This document shows, in pieces, positions 1 to 5,356 of a stretch of 15,366 bases of DNA. How positions within the stretch are numbered: position 1 is the first letter of the stretch; the number at the start of each line of letters is the position of its first letter. The position numbers were made by a program, and so were the translations under genes. This DNA is from Escherichia coli (GTDB taxonomy: Bacteria > Pseudomonadota > Gammaproteobacteria > Enterobacterales > Enterobacteriaceae): the NCBI RefSeq assembly GCF_003334315.1, contig NZ_QOWR01000075.1, one strand, 5' to 3'. The notes under the pieces are model-generated. The model saw nothing but the letters and a program-made list of their open reading frames with translations. It ran no database searches and was not told the DNA's origin.

Positions 1-105
1 ATTATATCGAATGTGATTACAATCGGTGGCGGCGGCACAGTTGGTGTGGCGGCCTCAGTCCGGAACAATTTGAAAACAAGAACCTCGCTTAGGCCTGTGT
101 CCATA

Positions 106-483
106 TTACGTGGGTAGGATCAGATCAGGAACAGCTTTAACAGTAGCTTCTTGTTGTGTCTTGGCTTCTTGTCTAGCTTCTTCTTGTGGAATATCTACCA
201 CTTGATAGACATTAGAACTTCCTGGTCGTGCATCTTTTATAATTAACCCCATTTCGAGCAATTTCTTAACCCTTTCCTCTGCTGCTCTTGGTGTTATGCC
301 AAAAACATCGCCTATCTTAGCGTAAGAGGGAAATGCACGATCAAACCCTTTCAGATAGCAGTAAAGATTTTTAGCACTATCTGTAAATTTATGCCCGTTT
401 ACTTGGCTTATTTTTAGAATCCACATAGGAACTTTTACAAATTGTTCTTCATTAATCATTAAAAATCTCCTTGATGTAATCAC
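106..483 (-). CDS. HTH_36-like winged-helix DNA-binding protein, 125 aa (putative replication-initiator-like or regulatory protein of the element)
   Basis: ORF MITSRRFLMINEEQFVKVPMWILK...; the central segment SAKNLYCYLKGFDRAFPSYAKIGDVFGITPRAAEERVKKLLEMGLI has the pattern I associate with the HTH_36 family found in phage/plasmid Rep-like proteins. Strong RBS: the minus strand reads AAGGAGA about 7 nt before the ATG. Last gene of a tightly packed three-gene operon. Confidence 0.55.
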   Translation of the reverse strand: MITSRRFLMINEEQFVKVPMWILKISQVNGHKFTDSAKNLYCYLKGFDRAFPSYAKIGDVFGITPRAAEERVKKLLEMGLIIKDARPGSSNVYQVVDIPQEEARQEAKTQQEATVKAVPDLILPT

Positions 484-512
484 GCTCTATGGCGCTACTA
501 TGGTGATAAAAA

Positions 513-683
513 TCACTTGCTTTTATTTGAGAGTGTTTCAGCCTCTCTTTTCAACATATCAAGAATGTAATCTGTGACAGTGATACGTCTACTTCTGGCT
601 TCTTTAAATAACACCTGAAATACTTCATCAGGAATATGAAAGCAAGTGCGTGGTTGTCTTTTCTTTTCTGTAGTTTCGCTCAT
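513..683 (-). CDS. Small ribbon-helix-helix-like (CopG/Arc-type) protein, 56 aa; absent from the supplied ORF track (below length cutoff)
   Basis: Hand translation of the minus strand: MSETTEKKRQPRTCFHIPDEVFQVLFKEARSRRITVTDYILDMLKREAETLSNKSK, stop TGA (complement at 513-515). The pattern basic N-terminus, beta-strand (TCFHIPDEV), helix (FQVLFKEARSRR), helix (ITVTDYILDMLK) is RHH-like. Strong RBS AAGGAG 6 nt upstream; 19-nt gap to the upstream gene and 29-nt gap to the downstream gene. Confidence 0.35.
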   Translation of the reverse strand: MSETTEKKRQPRTCFHIPDEVFQVLFKEARSRRITVTDYILDMLKREAETLSNKSK

Positions 684-702
684 AGTTTTCTCCTTCTATT
701 CT

Positions 703-891
703 TTACTCTGTTTCAGATTCTTTTTCATTTTTTCTTAATTCATCAATAATCTTGAGTGCTTCATTGAAGCAAGCTGCTCGCTCTGGATAACCTCGACTCC
801 TTGCCATATTACGATTCATTACTATTTGGTGGCGTGTAAGCTCACCTTTTTTAAATGCCGCGACAACGTGTTCCGATGTGAACCATTTCAT
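703..891 (-). CDS. Hypothetical small protein, 62 aa; first gene of the three-gene operon
   Basis: ORF MKWFTSEHVVAAFKKGELTRHQIVMNRNMARSRGYPERAACFNEALKIIDELRKNEKESETE with a strong RBS (minus strand TAAGGAGTTTTTT then ATG). I do not recognise a family. Confidence 0.4.
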   Translation of the reverse strand: MKWFTSEHVVAAFKKGELTRHQIVMNRNMARSRGYPERAACFNEALKIIDELRKNEKESETE

Positions 892-1122
892 AAAAAACTC
901 CTTATTCAGTTAAAAGAAAAACACCTTGCAAGCCTGACGGCTTCAAAGTGCATTGATTTTGATTATTTAGAGAAGAATGTTTTTCTGTCCCTCTAATACC
1001 TATTATTACATATAAAGAAACATTTGTCAATACCTTTTCACAAAAAATCTGATCTTTTTCATGTACTTACATTTTTTCTTAGCAATTCGTGCTCTTCTGT
1101 GTAGTGCTATTCTTCCTTATTG

Positions 1123-1145
1123 TCTAAAACGCTCTAAAACGCGTT
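1123..1145. repeat. Tandem 10-bp direct repeat tctaaaacgc x2 running into the palindrome AACGCGTT
   Basis: Seen directly: tctaaaacgc at 1123-1132 and 1133-1142, followed by a degenerate third unit (gttctaacga). Lies in the non-coding region upstream of the minus-strand operon. Confidence 0.4.
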
Positions 1146-1461
1146 CTAACGAGGTTTTGATAAAAGCAATACATTCCCTTATGTAATGGCTGTTTAGCTC
1201 GCCAGAGGCTTATTTAAGGGGCTTATTTTGTATTTGTTAGGTATATGAAAAGGTGATGGTAGATATAAGATAGAGAGTCACTTTATAAAACGCTCTGTAA
1301 AGCCCTGTAGTGAGTTTATATATGTAGGCAATGCGTTTCCATTCCCTACCCTGCTTAATGCTGTTAGAGAAGCATTTAGACCCCTTATTTTTAATTACCT
1401 AAAGTATCCTCTATACATTCCTGTTATGAAACACCTCTGAATCCTTCATAAAACACATTAT

Positions 1462-1517
1462 GACGCAAAGAACACTTTTCTAAGGTGATTCCCTTCCTGA
1501 ATGCTGTTTCTTGCGTC
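1462..1517. repeat. Imperfect inverted repeat, 13-nt arms (gacgcaaagaaca ... tgtttcttgcgtc), 30-nt spacer
   Basis: Seen directly; 11 of 13 positions are complementary. Possible operator or RNA hairpin. Confidence 0.4.
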
Positions 1518-1560
1518 AAAGAGCTACACAGAGCTTATAAAGCTATTATTAATAATAAAG

Positions 1561-1620
1561 TAGACAAAGTAAGTAAGATAAGTAAGTAAGATAACTAAGA
1601 TAGATAAGATTAATAAGATC
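1561..1620. repeat. Degenerate AT-rich short tandem repeat (aagtaag / ataagat units)
   Basis: Seen directly: aagtaagataagtaagtaagataactaagatagataagattaataagatc. Confidence 0.6.
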
Positions 1621-1630
1621 AGAATTCTCT

Positions 1631-1660
1631 TTCGGTGTCGCCTCTGGCTTTTCCACCGAA
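1631..1660. other. Hairpin-forming inverted repeat ttcggtg-N16-caccgaa
   Basis: Seen directly: 7-bp perfect arms with a T-rich loop (tcgcctctggcttttc), located just before the first 42-bp direct repeat. Confidence 0.35.
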
Positions 1661-1663
1661 AAC

Positions 1664-1828
1664 AATTACACAACTACAGAGAATAACGAGAGTTATTAAA
1701 TGTAGAAAGTGGAATTGTATTGAGGCTTAGTGAAATTACACGAGGAAAGCAGAGTGTAATTGAGCTTTAGCCGCTCTCTCTTCGAGTAATTACACAACTA
1801 CAGAGAATAACAGAGTTATTAAATGTAG
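1664..1828. repeat. Pair of 41/42-bp direct repeats (aattacacaactacagagaataac(g)agagttattaaatgtag) about 124 bp apart
   Basis: Seen directly: copy 1 at 1664-1705, copy 2 at 1788-1828, differing by a single g indel. Each contains the short palindrome aataac...gttatt and is followed by similar sequence (gaaagtggaatt / gagggtaatt). Confidence 0.7.
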
Positions 1829-1917
1829 GAGGGTAATTAAGAGTTAGAGAGAGTTAACACATAAGCAATCAGTATGATTGGTTAGGTGATTACTCTTCTG
1901 CGCACAGCGCAATAGTA

Positions 1918-1960
1918 TTTCTTCGTGGGCGTTACCGCCAACGATAGTTACACGAAGAAA
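1918..1960. other. Strong stem-loop: 10-bp perfect inverted repeat tttcttcgtg / cacgaagaaa enclosing a nested ggcg-ttac-cgcc hairpin, within a locally GC-richer segment (about 1860-2075); candidate structured RNA or protein-binding site
   Basis: Seen directly. The 75-codon minus-strand ORF over this segment has no obvious RBS or protein-like composition, so I favour a structural element over a CDS. Confidence 0.4.
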
Positions 1961-2128
1961 GTAACGCTTTGCTTTCGGTGTGAGCGGAACGGGCCAGCCA
2001 CGAAGCCCAAAGGTAGCGGAGTAAGGCTGCTTGCCAGAGAGTGAAGCTAACGCCGGAAGGCAAAAGATCATATAAATAAATATATAATATTATAATTTAA
2101 TAAGTAATTTAATAAATGATCTAATAGG

Positions 2129-2262
2129 TAACAGAATTCTGTGGGGGTGTCTAACAGTTTTCTGTGGGGGTGTCTAACAGAATTCTGTTAGGGTGGGGTA
2201 ACAGAATTTTGTTAGGGTAAAAATCTCTTTAAAAGTTAAGATTAACAGAATTCTGTGGGGGG
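2129..2262. repeat. Repeat family A: palindrome (t)AACAGAATTCTGT(T) followed by G-runs (gtggggg); direct repeat ctgtgggggtgtctaacag x2
   Basis: Seen directly: copies starting near 2129, 2176, 2199 (degenerate, aattttgtt) and 2243, with a fifth at 2538. ACAGAATTCTGT is a perfect 12-bp palindrome, a likely dimeric DNA-binding-protein site. Confidence 0.7.
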
Positions 2263-2325
2263 TAGCTCACAGTGACCTACCCCCTAGTTCACTATGACCT
2301 ACCCCCCTAGGTCACAGTGACCTAT
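2263..2325. repeat. Iteron cluster 1 (family B): three roughly 21-bp units tag(c/t)tcac(a/t)(g/a)tgacctacccc; the third is the perfect palindrome AGGTCACAGTGACCT
   Basis: Seen directly: 2263-2284, 2285-2307 and 2307-2325; the palindrome is at 2309-2323. Confidence 0.7.
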
Positions 2326-2349
2326 ATAGTATAAAGAATATTATTTATA

Positions 2350-2377
2350 TTATTTAATTATAGTATTTAATTATAGT
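2350..2377. repeat. AT-rich 13-bp tandem repeat (atttaattatagt x2) in a roughly 50-bp A+T tract; candidate DNA-unwinding element
   Basis: Seen directly, lying between iteron families B and C. Iterons next to an AT-rich tract is the classical origin layout. Confidence 0.45.
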
Positions 2378-2385
2378 ATTGGTGG

Positions 2386-2483
2386 AACTCATTTCCTAGG
2401 TAGGTAGGAACTAATTTCCTAAGTAGGTAGGAAACCACTTCCTAGGTTACTTCCTAAATAGATCGGAAATCATTTCCTAGGTG
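2386..2483. repeat. Repeat family C: (a/c)tttcctagg(taggtagga) units at roughly 22-bp spacing (4-5 copies); contains the palindrome CCTAGG
   Basis: Seen directly: tttcctagg at 2392, tttcctaag at 2414, cttcctagg at 2438, cttcctaaa at 2451, tttcctagg at 2473. Confidence 0.6.
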
Positions 2484-2498
2484 TTATTTATACTTATC

Positions 2499-2535
2499 GG
2501 GTATCAGTTTTGATAGGGGTATCAGACTTGATAGG
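2499..2535. repeat. Repeat family D: gggtatcag(tt/ac)ttgatag x2 in tandem, 19-bp period
   Basis: Seen directly at 2499-2516 and 2517/2518-2535. Confidence 0.6.
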
Positions 2536-2556
2536 GGTAACAGAATTCTGTGGGGG

Positions 2557-2618
2557 TAGTTCACTATGACCTACCCCTAGTTCACTGTGAGCTACCCCTA
2601 GTTCACTGTGAGCTACCG
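2557..2618. repeat. Iteron cluster 2 (family B): three head-to-tail 21-bp units tagttcac(t)(a/g)tga(c/g)ctacc(cc)
   Basis: Seen directly: 2557-2577, 2578-2598 and 2599-2618, with exact 21-bp periodicity (two helical turns), as expected for Rep-binding iterons. Confidence 0.75.
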
Positions 2619-2712
2619 TTACATCCAATCATCTGTCGATGTAACATATCGTTACTACCAACTTTCTTACAAAGAGCATTTCAGATAGCTGAATGTAACC
2701 TCTCGTTACATC
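2617..2712. repeat. Palindrome-rich block: gttacatc-N12-gatgtaac, gtaac-atatc-gttac, and cgttacatcc repeated (2617 and 2703)
   Basis: Seen directly. Confidence 0.5.
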
Positions 2713-2729
2713 CATTTGTCACATAGCAC

Positions 2730-3210
2730 TCTGTGTAATGCCTTTCTATGTGTGTGCCATAATCCCCCTATATTCCCTGTGTAAATCATAGAATAATGCT
2801 CTCTATTCCCTGTGTAATTCCCTACTAAAAATCAATGAAAAAGTAGCTTAAAGTTGCAATTCTTACTTTCTTCACTTTTACATCACTTTCGCAAAGCCTT
2901 GTGTAATGCGGCTTACAGAGCACCATCAGAAATTGTTGGCTAAAAATTATTCTGCTTGTTTCTGAACGAGTTTTCTCGTTTGTGCAAATTTTAAAATTTA
3001 TTTTGTTTTTACAGCCTTATTTCGTGTAATGCGTGGCATAGCAAGCCCTTTTCTTGTGTTGTCAAGACATTTGGCAACGTTCAAACATCTGTTTAGAAAT
3101 GCCAAATTGTTGATCTAACAAATAAACCTGTATAAACAGAACACCATTTAATCTATTCCCCTGTGTATCCATTAGGCATACCAAATGAATACAGCTAAAT
3201 CGTGTAATAT
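2730..3210. repeat. Dispersed motif (c)tgtgtaat(g) recurring about 7 times, including the direct repeat tattccctgtgtaa x2 (2770-2818)
   Basis: Seen directly near 2733, 2779, 2811, 2901, 3026, 3161 (variant tgtgtatcc) and 3203. The region is non-coding and leads up to the recombinase gene. Confidence 0.45.
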
Positions 3211-3262
3211 TCCGTACCCATAAGGCTTGAAACAGACCAAATGAATACGGTATACTCATTTG
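3169..3262. promoter_or_regulatory. Putative res/hix-like recombinase binding region: duplicated motif cat(t/a)aggc..accaaatgaatac(a/g)g plus the palindrome caaatga-N11-tcatttg
   Basis: Seen directly: copy 1 at 3169-3194, copy 2 at 3217-3250, palindrome at 3238-3262 with the palindromic core gtatac. The location immediately 5' of a resolvase-family gene is where res sites sit in Tn3-family and plasmid resolution systems. Confidence 0.4.
3227..3256 (+). promoter_or_regulatory. Putative sigma70 promoter of the recombinase gene (-35 TTGAAA, 18-bp spacer, -10 TATACT)
   Basis: -35 at 3227-3232, -10 at 3251-3256, about 45 nt upstream of the ATG at 3302. The -10 lies inside the palindrome, which would suggest autoregulation. 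Sequence-pattern inference only. Confidence 0.35.
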
Positions 3263-3301
3263 CATTTAAGTAGTGCCAAATCGACACATTAAGAGGATTT
3301 T

Positions 3302-3841
3302 ATGAGCAATATCGGTTATAAGCGTGTGAGCACTGTAGATCAGAACACTGATCGCCAGCTTGCAGGAGTAACTCTCGATAAAGTCTTTGAAGATAAGCTG
3401 TCTGGTAAAGACACTAACCGCCCAGGCTTACAAGCGTGTTTAGCCTATCTGAGAGAAGGCGACACCTTACACGTGCACTCTCTCGACCGTTTAGGACGTA
3501 ACACCTTAGACATCCTTGCTTTAGTTGAACAACTTAATAATCGAGGTGTAATTGTTCGATTTCACAAAGAAGGAATCATTGCAGACATTACAAGCGCGAT
3601 GGGAAAGATGATGCTTACGATGTTGTCGGCAGTTGCAACGTGTGAACGTGAACTGATGTTAGAACGTAAACGAGAAGCGCAAGCCGTCAATCCTACAAAA
3701 CGTGGTAATGGAAAAGCAGTGGATCGAGAAGGTATAAAGAAAGCCCTTTCTGATGGCCTGTCAGTGCGTAAAACCGCCGAGAGCTTTAATGTTGCTCCTT
3801 CAACGGTGCAACGTATCAAGAAGGAAGAAGAGGAGGCGTAA
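3302..3841 (+). CDS. Small serine recombinase (resolvase/invertase family), 179 aa
   Basis: N-terminal GYKRVSTVDQ is the catalytic-serine motif of serine recombinases. Conserved blocks FEDKLSG, RPGL, LDRLGR and SAVATCERELMLER resemble the Tn3 TnpR, Gin and Hin layout. A C-terminal HTH is present (LSVRKTAESFNVAPSTVQRIKK). RBS AAGAGGA lies 5 nt upstream. Not identical to the Pin or Gin sequences I recall. Confidence 0.85.
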   Translation: MSNIGYKRVSTVDQNTDRQLAGVTLDKVFEDKLSGKDTNRPGLQACLAYLREGDTLHVHSLDRLGRNTLDILALVEQLNNRGVIVRFHKEGIIADITSAMGKMMLTMLSAVATCERELMLERKREAQAVNPTKRGNGKAVDREGIKKALSDGLSVRKTAESFNVAPSTVQRIKKEEEEA

Positions 3842-3850
3842 TGCCTCCTT
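3829..3850 (+). terminator. Possible hairpin at the recombinase stop (ggaggcg-taa-tgcctcc)
   Basis: 6-bp GC stem spanning the stop codon, followed by ttgatattt. Weak T-tract, so low confidence. Confidence 0.25.
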
Positions 3851-4077
3851 GATATTTGAGAATTGTCGCTGCGTGGACCTGACGGCGCTGATCTTCTCGT
3901 TAAGCGATGATCACGTATGCGCCGATTTCAGAGAAAAAGACAGTAACTGAACTCACTATGAAGGCTAAACGTATCTTTACACTTGATGAAAACGTTCAAA
4001 AAACAACCTAACCCCAAAATTCAACAAATTGCAACACATTGTTTTTAAAAGAAAATTAAATCTACATCAAATATTGG

Positions 4078-4106
4078 TTGACGTAGATTGAGGTGAATAG
4101 TAGACT
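4078..4106 (+). promoter_or_regulatory. Putative promoter for the small hydrophobic ORF (-35 TTGACG, 17-bp spacer, -10 TAGACT)
   Basis: Pattern match only; would give a leader of about 70 nt before the ATG at 4183. Confidence 0.25.
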
Positions 4107-4182
4107 ATTAGGGTAAATTACCACCCTTGTAACATCATTTAATGCATGTTCTAATCTTCCTATCGTAAAACCGGAGGAAGTT

Positions 4183-4341
4183 ATGCATTTACTTTCAAAA
4201 CATCTTCACACTATTCACTTTCTCGTTATTGATGTATTCGTTGTGGCTATTAGTTACCGCATTTGCATCGCTTCCAGTGAAGAGATGGACGCTGTTGCAA
4301 TTATTGCTCAAGCAATGGCGATATTAACTAAACGACTTTAA
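4183..4341 (+). CDS. Small hydrophobic protein, 52 aa (candidate small membrane protein or toxin-like peptide); absent from the ORF track
   Basis: Hand translation: MHLLSKHLHTIHFLVIDVFVVAISYRICIASSEEMDAVAIIAQAMAILTKRL, stop TAA at 4339-4341. Strong RBS GGAGGAAG 5-6 nt upstream. A roughly 20-residue hydrophobic stretch is consistent with one transmembrane helix. Confidence 0.35.
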   Translation: MHLLSKHLHTIHFLVIDVFVVAISYRICIASSEEMDAVAIIAQAMAILTKRL

Positions 4342-4354
4342 TAATTTCACTATC

Positions 4355-4398
4355 AGGCGCATAAACACATCTTTGATCGCTGGATGTGTTATGCGCCT
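4355..4398. terminator. Long near-perfect inverted repeat (aggcgcataaacacatc - N11 - gatgtgttatgcgcct) between the two convergent small ORFs; candidate bidirectional terminator or operator
   Basis: Seen directly: arms at 4355-4371 and 4383-4398, 16 of 17 positions paired with one bulged A. The position between convergent ORFs fits a terminator, though flanking T-tracts are weak. Confidence 0.45.
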
Positions 4399-4407
4399 AC
4401 TGGTGAT

Positions 4408-4560
4408 TCAATCCTTAAGCCATTTCAACTCACTAAGGAGTTTTCTTTCTTCGTTCTCTCGTTGCTTTCGCTCTAGCCAGGCTTTTCCCTCTGGCGTAGA
4501 CAGGAACTTACGAGCGTGAATCTTGCGGTTATTACGTTTTATAGCTGCAATGTTTTTCAT
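4408..4560 (-). CDS. Small basic protein, 50 aa, hypothetical; absent from the ORF track
   Basis: Hand translation of the minus strand: MKNIAAIKRNNRKIHARKFLSTPEGKAWLERKQRENEERKLLSELKWLKD, stop TGA (complement at 4408-4410). A possible RBS (AGAGG) lies upstream. I do not recognise a family. Confidence 0.3.
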   Translation of the reverse strand: MKNIAAIKRNNRKIHARKFLSTPEGKAWLERKQRENEERKLLSELKWLKD

Positions 4561-5166
4561 CGTGTTGCCTCTGTATTCATATGAAAATTAACAAGTTACA
4601 TACTACACAGGGAGACTACGCATAAAACACAATACAAGTAAAGATACATTTTCAAGACAATAGGAGCCATAAAGCGCCTTTGATGGTTATACCAAAAAAT
4701 AAGCGCCGTAGGCGTATCCACTAAAAAGGGCTTTTTCACAAAAGCTATGAAGTCTTAGCAGTTCTTCTCTTATCAGGCACCCGTTGTACTCCGGTGGACG
4801 AAACCGTGCTAGAGCTTGATTCTTTCCCGATCAAGTTAGGTTTTGAAGAGGTGGGCTTTAATCCACTATTGCACTTAAAACTCTTCCCATCATTTAGCCT
4901 GTTTATCCTCTGCAACGTCTCACGACGTGTAGCATCATTGGACACCGCGCCAGGTGTGGAACATCTTGCTAAGAGTTTTGGTAGAAGGTTTAGAGACGGT
5001 GGCACGTCTTCCAGCTTCAAAGGAACTTGTTACGAGGTTGAGCCTGGGAACTACTCGCCCATACGTGTTACACTACCAAAGCCCATAACAACGTATAGGC
5101 GTTTGTAAGTGATAACAGAAGATACAATTTCTTAGAGAAGTTAAGCTAAGTTATTGATTTTCTTGA

Positions 5167-5242
5167 TGGTGCCGATAATAGGAGTCGAACCTACGACCTT
5201 CGCATTACGAATGCGCTGCTCTACCAACTGAGCTATATCGGC
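5167..5242 (-). tRNA. thrW: tRNA-Thr (anticodon CGU), thrW-like
   Basis: The minus strand reads GCCGATATAGCTCAGTTGGTAGAGCAGCGCATTCGTAATGCGAAGGTCGTAGGTTCGACTCCTATTATCGGCACCA: cloverleaf features, anticodon loop TTCGTAA, encoded CCA. It sits downstream of proA as in E. coli. Confidence 0.95.
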
Positions 5243-5356
5243 CCTGAAAGGACATGTTCACGAACGTGAATCACGGTGGACAAGGTTAAAACTAACCGGG
5301 CGATGCGTCAATGGCCTTGTGAATCAAATGGCTACTTTTGCATCACCCGGTTTTAT

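Follow-up and report, generated by a model that had tools for sequence, protein, structure and literature searches.

GTGTAAT words on both sides of an iteron origin: candidate protein-binding sites in a satellite-like island of Escherichia coli

The non-coding part of an integrated, satellite-like island at the tRNA gene thrW of Escherichia coli carries a dispersed 7-bp word, GTGTAAT, which is strongly enriched, biased in strand and retained by island variants that differ in almost everything around it. Here we describe this array in a window of 15,366 nucleotides (the whole stretch of DNA analysed, from contig NZ_QOWR01000075.1 of assembly GCF_003334315.1), with particular attention to positions 2730-3210, the lead-up to a serine recombinase gene. 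Tentatively, and with slightly less than even confidence, we interpret the words as oriented sites or half-sites for one DNA-binding protein of the Escherichia lineage that would be constant across the island variants. Homologous loci used for comparison are referred to by L numbers.

Within 2730-3210, across which no coding sequence is annotated in any homologous E. coli record, the core GTGTAAT occurs five times (2733, 2812, 2901, 3024 and 3202) and one-mismatch variants occur at 2779 (GTGTAAA) and 3163 (GTGTATC). All seven copies lie on the plus strand, with start-to-start spacings of 46, 33, 89, 123, 139 and 39 bp, and the consensus of the words is about YYYT-GTGTAAT-K. The first-pass annotation of this DNA had described about seven same-strand, irregularly spaced copies of the octamer tgtgtaat; strand and spacing are as described, and the count is right for the 7-mer core with one mismatch allowed, but the exact octamer TGTGTAAT is present only three times (2732, 2811 and 2900). 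The longer repeat seen there twice is also real, as the 14-mer TATTCCCTGTGTAA (repeat family D9) has two exact copies, at 2771-2784 and 2804-2817, besides the near-copy TATTCCCCTGTGTA at 3154-3167. From left to right, the copies are site 3 (cTCTGTGTAATGCc, 2732-2739), site 4 (TATTCCCTGTGTAAA, 2771-2785, a composite with ATTCCC), site 1 (TATTCCCTGTGTAATTCCC, 2804-2822), site 2 (GCCTTGTGTAATGCGGCTTACAGAGC, 2896-2921, including the dyad TGTAA-N6-TTACA at 2902-2917), site 5 (TTCGTGTAATGCG, 3021-3033), the degenerate site 6 (TATTCCCCTGTGTATC, 3154-3169) and site 7 (ATCGTGTAATATTCC, 3199-3213), all on the plus strand.

Recurrence by chance in AT-rich DNA, the explanation that the annotation had set against its own, does not account for these numbers. 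On the plus strand of 2700-3310, GTGTAAT is the commonest 7-mer and occurs 5 times against 0.10 expected from a first-order Markov model built from the same AT-rich segment, a count reached in none of 1000 simulations; for 1600-3310 the corresponding figures are 9 against about 0.36 (0 of 1000). Window-wide, there are 13 copies of GTGTAAT against 2.06 expected (0 of 200 dinucleotide shuffles) and 6 of TGTGTAAT against 0.51 (6 was reached in 0 of 200 shuffles). A second word, ATTCCCT, is co-enriched (6 copies versus 0.17 expected) and is fused to the GTGTAAT core in three copies. The island coding DNA, about 8 kb taken from the loci L003 and L005, contains only about one GTGTAAT.

The array had been described as a feature of the recombinase lead-up, and this part of the description needs correction: copies flank the replication origin of the island on both sides, and variants devoid of the recombinase keep them. 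Left of the iterons, GTGTAAT is found at 1665, 1735 and 1789 on the minus strand and at 1754 on the plus strand. These copies form a mostly minus-strand cluster (1664-1828) with two direct repeats of about 42 bp (1664-1705 and 1788-1828, a 124-bp duplication), each of which opens with ATTACAC, that is, GTGTAAT on the minus strand, and with the palindrome AATTACAC-N12-GTGTAATT at 1734-1761. The cluster is kept in L003, L005 and L028 and is missing from the L025 type; further degenerate plus-strand copies are located at 1097 and 1176. Since copies occur on both sides of the iterons, the motif brackets the iteron/AT-rich origin at 2129-2620, where several iteron families surround an AT-rich core (2320-2380), with largely opposite orientations on the two sides: three of four left copies are on the minus strand, and all right copies are on the plus strand. 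Within the left 42-bp repeat, the dyad AATAAC-N4-GTTATT (1682-1697) corresponds to GATAAC-N4-GTTATC in L042, and this compensatory change of both arms suggests a second conserved protein site or a hairpin.

The array was originally held to be distinct from the iterons, and this is borne out in part. The true iterons of 2129-2620 are spaced 21-24 bp apart; the GTGTAAT copies, at 33-139 bp, lack the regular spacing of about 20-24 bp beside an AT-rich region, and they do not co-vary with the DNA-binding domain of the initiator. However, the motif has a GTAA core in common with two GTAAC-N5-GTTAC dyads (2641-2655 and 2695-2709) that are located after the iterons and before the array. In the L025 type, 4-5 units of this form adjoin the AT-rich core, one of them reading GATGTGTAATATCGTTAC. 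The DnaA box is the 9-mer TTATNCACA, with the reverse complement TGTGNATAA; in a comparison by eye with this consensus, the copies fit TGTG-N-A and differ at the last three positions (TGTGTAATG/T versus TGTGNATAA), and their spacing is unlike that of the oriC DnaA-box arrays; weak binding of DnaA to the copies is still conceivable.

Conservation of the motif was assessed in 16 distinct E. coli variants aligned across the region. The region is a mosaic with at least two unrelated alleles on each side of a non-coding block of about 140 bp (2806-2945), which contains sites 1 and 2 and is the only part common to all E. coli variants (75-98% identity). The block opens with CCCTGTGTAATTCC of site 1, nearly invariant in the 16 variants and preceded by a flank that is non-homologous between types, and it also contains CCTTGTGTAATGCGGCTTACAGAGCAC of site 2. 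Every E. coli variant has the copies at 2812 and 2901, and no other copy is found in all of them, the rest having been added in particular lineages. The segments with sites 3-7 are missing from L025-type variants, in which GTGCAAT is the counterpart of site 3 and non-homologous sequence takes the position of site 4. Site 4 is present in window-type variants, L005 and L028, the segment with site 5 is limited to the window type, L003 and L005, and the L005 counterpart of site 6 is a full GTGTAAT. In turn, L025 has extra copies of its own at 3932 and 3989 (plus strand) and 4546 (minus strand), and the recombinase-less L005 and L027 have an extra copy in an alternative right-hand module. Because copies are found in unrelated segments of different variants, the motif was kept or gained in several non-homologous contexts.

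Moreover, none of the E. coli variants examined lacks the motif, whatever its initiator domain, iteron family or recombinase allele. Variants share only 13-23% identity in the N-terminal winged helix-turn-helix domain of the initiator, and their large iteron families differ accordingly; the recombinase may be absent, represented by another serine allele or replaced by a tyrosine recombinase; and two alleles of a ribbon-helix-helix (RHH)-like protein, 46-48% identical, both co-occur with the motif. At the three copies that can be aligned between the window and the L025 type, 20 of 21 motif positions are identical versus about 77% in the background (binomial P ~0.03). In L049 the array is down to the two core sites, both with the same G-to-A change (ATGTAAT).

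Related islands in other genera, located via a 62-aa island protein and a conserved 37-mer, have tandem iterons, but the GTGTAAT cluster is absent from them. L042, colinear with the window, shares its TAACAGAATTCTGTGGGGG iterons and has a near-identical beta-strand in the RHH-like protein; at the left heptamer positions of the window it reads ATAGCAC, CTTGCAC and GTGAACT, and it retains site 1 only, as CCCTGGTGTAATTCCC. At site 2, the flanks are kept in other genera and the arms read CGCTGT-N7-ACAGCG (L023) or CGCCGT-N7-ACAGCG (L024, L042). The centre of the site 2 dyad is about 53 bp upstream of the cross-genus element TTGAACGAGTTTTC (2962-2975), at the same distance in the other genera, and in L023 this element provides the -35 of a promoter close to consensus, TTGAAC-17-TGtTATAAT. 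Such a dyad in a fixed place relative to a promoter, with arms that switch together between lineages, looks like an operator, to which a protein would bind. As far as the compared sequences go, only the Escherichia lineage has one dyad half-site word spread over its control region. The non-coding regions of L043 and L044 have another dispersed word, AAATGATC(AT), with GATC (4-5 copies versus about 0.1-0.4 expected), which hints that dispersed short words may be a general feature of the family, with a lineage-specific sequence. The 37-mer itself (ATTTGGCA...AAATGCC, 3069-3105) is 92-95% identical in at least five other genera (e.g., L009 1501-1537; L024 6141-6177) and always lies upstream of a small recombinase gene, of serine or tyrosine type. 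Its sequence looks like a sigma-70 promoter, TTGGCA-17-TAGAAA or TAGACT, and the window carries the former as a putative plus-strand promoter at 3071-3099.

Clustered protein-binding sites, as first proposed, are the reading that best fits words that are enriched, strand-biased, non-coding, kept across mosaics, gained independently and, at site 2, exchanged as a whole dyad; the binding itself is what we infer. The sites would lie to the left and to the right of the iteron origin, in a non-coding control region of 2.4 kb, with two core sites in the 140-bp block, one of them the dyad upstream of the conserved -35, and with single sites added in different modules in different lineages. By binding there, the protein would assemble a nucleoprotein complex around the origin and the promoters that read outward, and this complex may control origin firing or copy number, and/or rightward transcription.

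Several observations weigh against this scheme. The irregular spacing, with no helical phasing, is unusual for cooperative binding. Conservation of the two universal copies is not specific to the motif, because the block that holds them is conserved throughout. Variants of the L049 type manage with two copies, and site 2 is degenerate in L027. Finally, no candidate protein co-varies with the motif.

The candidates encoded by the island are an O-like replication initiator, truncated in the window (106-483, minus strand), a 56-aa RHH-like protein (513-683, minus strand; recognised by language-model features only) and the 62-aa protein (703-891, minus strand). The initiator was ruled out, because its DNA-binding domain varies while the motif stays. 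The RHH-like protein is an unlikely binder: its beta-strand is nearly the same in L042 (PRTCLHIP versus PRTCFHIP), yet L042 has no cluster, and a PDB sequence search with this protein gave no significant match. The 62-aa protein, confidently modelled as three helices (pLDDT 87), has no fold match and no recognisable DNA-binding fold, and was likewise set aside; a related-locus search with it returned two loci only. Pfam found no DNA-binding domain in the remaining small island proteins.

Since no island protein could be nominated, a factor encoded by a helper or by the host becomes possible, and this leads to the main alternative, which we judge unlikely. It holds that the words are an orientation-dependent cis signal for a DNA transaction proceeding outward from the origin and read by a helper or host factor, for instance, signals for priming or for a helicase on the lagging-strand template, sites of polar fork pausing, or pac-like repeats read by the packaging proteins of a helper phage. 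Orientation is indeed mirrored about the iteron/AT-rich core, and by this geometry 5'-GTGTAAT-3' would lie on the lagging-strand template of the departing forks; however, the mirror is not universal, as the L025 type has no left cluster and one inverted copy on the right, and degenerate plus-strand copies exist further to the left. Independence of the motif from all variable island proteins, its restriction to Escherichia copies, as expected if the helper were specific to E. coli, and the links of the island to ~148-kb Phapecoctavirus/Justusliebigvirus phages through its tape-measure-like protein and its initiator domain all speak for such a signal. On the other hand, Phapecoctavirus Mt1B1_P17 shows no enrichment or clustering of the motif (GTGTAAT 22 times versus 24 for a control word; TGTGTAAT 6 versus 4), and a genome-wide helper-phage motif or promoter was therefore rejected. 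A blastn search of 900-3310 against 50,697 phage records gave only a 46-53-bp match at 1114-1167 and none in the motif region. Packaged ends could not be read from the viral contigs, because all the matches are provirus records from isolate genomes.

The words could also have no function of their own, being remnants of short duplications and gene conversion events in an AT-rich mosaic prone to recombination, which we consider unlikely. In agreement with this, the 14 bp of TATTCCCTGTGTAA are common to three copies, GTGTAATGC is common to three as well, the left cluster is a duplication, and some variants have two copies only. The region is highly mosaic, and homology breakpoints between variants fall at motif copies (2775-2779, 2804 and 3167-3174). 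These breakpoints may reflect local conservation of the motif only, or recombination there; homology between recombinase-bearing and recombinase-less variants stops just after site 6. Debris of this kind would not readily explain why copies in mutually non-homologous modules share a core of only 7-9 bp, nor the strong strand bias, the near absence of the word from the island coding DNA, the conservation of site 1 across genera and the excess of identical motif positions at the three alignable copies.

A role at the RNA level seems improbable. In this case GUGUAAU would act in a long rightward non-coding transcript or in the 5' leader of the recombinase gene, as a motif for processing or for sponging a protein, much like the GGA motifs of CsrB. 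The same strand and irregular spacing of the copies are compatible with it, and rightward promoter-like sites are found at 2962-2999 and 3071-3099 and, in conserved form, at about 1060-1075. RNA-seq assembly contigs from four runs of several studies cover the region, one of them starting at 3077 with higher depth, but strand, start and end cannot be read from these contigs and DNA carry-over is possible. Further arguments against an RNA motif are that a transcript of this kind would contain the left-cluster copies in antisense, that no partner RNA-binding protein is evident, that an Rfam search returned tRNA only, and that the alignment of the region around the conserved block shows no RNA structure or covariation on either strand (RNAalifold -10.8 and -12.9 kcal/mol over 226 columns, with essentially no compensatory pairs). 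Nor do the copies themselves resemble promoters: a sigma-70 consensus scan of 2620-3220 detected at none of the copies a promoter-like site with -35 and -10 elements 16-18 bp apart, and no copy overlapping a predicted -10 or -35 element, and the whole region had 5 promoter-like hits versus 9.7 in shuffles, fewer than expected by chance.

The gene downstream of the array encodes a serine recombinase of the DNA invertase family (3302-3841, plus strand; Resolvase domain PF00239, 7.5e-34, plus HTH_7; phrog_125, 1.3e-54), and we regard it as very improbable that the GTGTAAT copies are its res-like or gix-like binding or crossover sites. What would favor this assignment is the proximity of the copies to the gene, the inverted copies about 1 kb to the left and the homology breakpoint that falls at site 6, some 140 bp before the start codon; in addition, TTCCCTGTGTAAA bears what we take to be a loose resemblance to a gix half-site. 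However, six of the seven copies have no inverted partner that would give a dyad-symmetric site of 24-34 bp, site 2 being the only dyad, and the motif does not co-occur with a cognate recombinase: L005 and L027, which have none, keep it and even gained a copy, and L025 and L049, with recombinases of other types (another serine allele or a tyrosine recombinase), keep it too. Moreover, no inverted arrangement was seen in genomes or RNA-seq contigs. A better fit to the crossover-site form is given by two separate dyads of about 26 bp built from CCAAATGAATAC (repeat D15; 3166-3191 and 3237-3262), between which site 7 lies. These candidate recombinase sites overlap a promoter-like site at 3227-3256, which would suggest autoregulation of the recombinase as in Tn3-type resolvases. 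Every other recombinase allele has a distinct upstream repeat, namely AATCAMCAC in L025, ACTAC in L042 and TTAATC in L049.

Overall, to judge from its sequence features, the array most likely belongs to a familiar kind, the cis-acting repeats to which proteins bind in control regions of mobile elements. Control repeats of iteron replicons include P1 incA, the distal iterons of R6K and half-iteron operators, and P4 has the octamers TGTTCACC at ori and crr. As in these systems, the GTGTAAT words are short, lie outside the core origin on one or both sides, and occur as direct, inverted and dyad versions; whereas those words are recognised by, and change with, their own initiator, GTGTAAT is initiator-independent and is spaced at 33-139 bp. 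The likeness to the operators of P1 C1 and other dispersed phage operators consists in asymmetric sites scattered over a control region, with one dyad upstream of a -35, whereas no repressor or activator gene was identified and no copy covers a predicted -10 or -35. Same-strand short words are also known from the SRL/SRR heptamer arrays beside the terminal repeats of T7 and from the hexamer clusters of P1 pac. This likeness, irregular same-strand words in non-coding phage DNA, serves as a lead only; those words mark genome ends or packaging sites, whereas GTGTAAT is known from sequence alone and no helper phage shares it.

The rightmost two thirds of the window consist of ordinary Enterobacteriaceae chromosomal DNA, with thrW (tRNA-Thr(CGT), 5167-5242, minus strand) followed by proA, proB, phoE, crl, frsA, gpt, pepD and prfH. 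All window DNA left of thrW, which bounds the island, is the right end of the integrated element (window portion 1-5150). Complete islands of about 12.4 kb are present in E. coli GPEC128-620 (L003 5410-18068) and O26:H11 11368 (L005 3859-16203). They encode, in this order, a tyrosine integrase, a Dit-like 'baseplate' protein (PF21821, 3.4e-29), a tape-measure-like protein (610 aa; phrog_16051, 2e-108), a capsid-E-like protein, several small open reading frames (ORFs), the O-like initiator and two small proteins, followed by 2.4-3 kb without an annotated gene, a small recombinase gene (in most variants) and thrW. The tape-measure-like protein is about 35% identical to the tape measures of Phapecoctavirus and Justusliebigvirus phages of ~148 kb. 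The island annotation includes no terminase, portal or lysis genes, and in other strains the same island type is found at tRNA-Gly and adjoining thiM. DNA similar to 2620-3310 was detected in 740 of 5426 complete E. coli genomes, nearly always on the chromosome. In the genome studied here the island is truncated, because bases 1-122 of the window are 100% identical to the end of the Escherichia phage phi467 record; the initiator ORF is 125 aa in the window versus 217-230 aa elsewhere. The N-terminal DNA-binding domain of the initiator (165-493, minus strand) has 95% DNA identity to the start of a 329-aa gene in the phages Mt1B1_P17 and BI-EHEC (L004 3296-4282). The three main iteron families of the window were not found, with up to three mismatches, in the Mt1B1_P17-type phage, and the domain common to island and phage could reflect a decoy or arms-race relationship.

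The island thus looks like a phage satellite that was not previously described, and we found no account of the thrW element as a satellite in the literature. Sp1 and Sp2 of strain Sakai have been reported at thrW. Recently, an F5 family of 'SUSP1 satellites' of a large virulent myophage was described in E. coli; these elements encode tape-measure and baseplate proteins, reside between tonB and yciI with the attB CAATGACCCTTGA, and have no capsid genes, and their non-coding function is assigned to solo VIPR vrRNAs of GGYNN arrays, defined as at least four tandem GGYNN units followed by a conserved tail (bioRxiv 10.64898/2026.10.15.759431). The present island resembles F5 in its Dit-like and tape-measure-like genes, likened by the kind of protein, and in its non-coding region of 2.4-3 kb. 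In contrast to F5, it is located at thrW, has a tyrosine integrase and a capsid-like gene, and its tape-measure-like protein matches those of Stephanstirmvirinae, not Ounavirinae. The word CAATGACCCTTGA was not found in the island even with two mismatches, and neither strand of 1-5300 contains a GGYNN run of at least four units at 85% conformity or more. Membership in F5 was rejected on the attachment site and the capsid-like gene, and also on the missing vrRNA. A broader proposal, which we consider rather unlikely, is that the array would be the recognition code of an undescribed E. coli satellite family (at thrW or tRNA-Gly, with Dit-like, tape-measure-like and capsid-like genes and links to ~148-kb virulent Stephanstirmvirinae phages), read by a conserved helper- or satellite-encoded factor to fire or package the satellite. 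This factor would have stayed constant while the initiator domain and the iterons diversified, possibly in an arms race with the phage gene that has the same initiator domain.

Other features of the non-coding region deserve a brief description. The segment 1890-2060, just left of the iterons, is conserved and relatively GC-rich (about 45%) and has several stem-forming inverted repeats, e.g., CTTCGTG...CACGAAG; it is kept by L003, L005 and L028, is partly different in the L025 type and has no Rfam match, and it may form a structured RNA or serve as a primer region. A low-complexity run of AAGATAAGTAAG-like units at 1560-1615 is kept in L003 and L005. The word TAAAACGCTCT, which presumably resembles boxA, is repeated at 1114-1167 and 1286-1317. 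The first of these two segments is the one with phage similarity, matching the Klebsiella phages KPN4 and phiKp_27 (about 110 kb) and one Pseudomonas phage at 85-92%. The promoter-like site at about 1060-1075 is just upstream of it and has a perfect extended -10 in L025.

The island or a close relative is present in about one in seven complete E. coli genomes, including enterohemorrhagic strains (EHEC) O26, O103 and O111 and avian pathogenic E. coli (APEC), and for an element of 12 kb its non-coding region of 2.4-3 kb is unusually long. In this region, nothing but the GTGTAAT sites and the 140-bp block stays constant while the replication-specificity and recombinase modules are swapped. If the sites are ordinary operators, they would constitute a useful cis-element annotation, and the surrounding element may merit more attention than the motif itself. 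Naming the reader of the sites would provide a handle on the control of this element and on the phage that mobilises it, if there is any.

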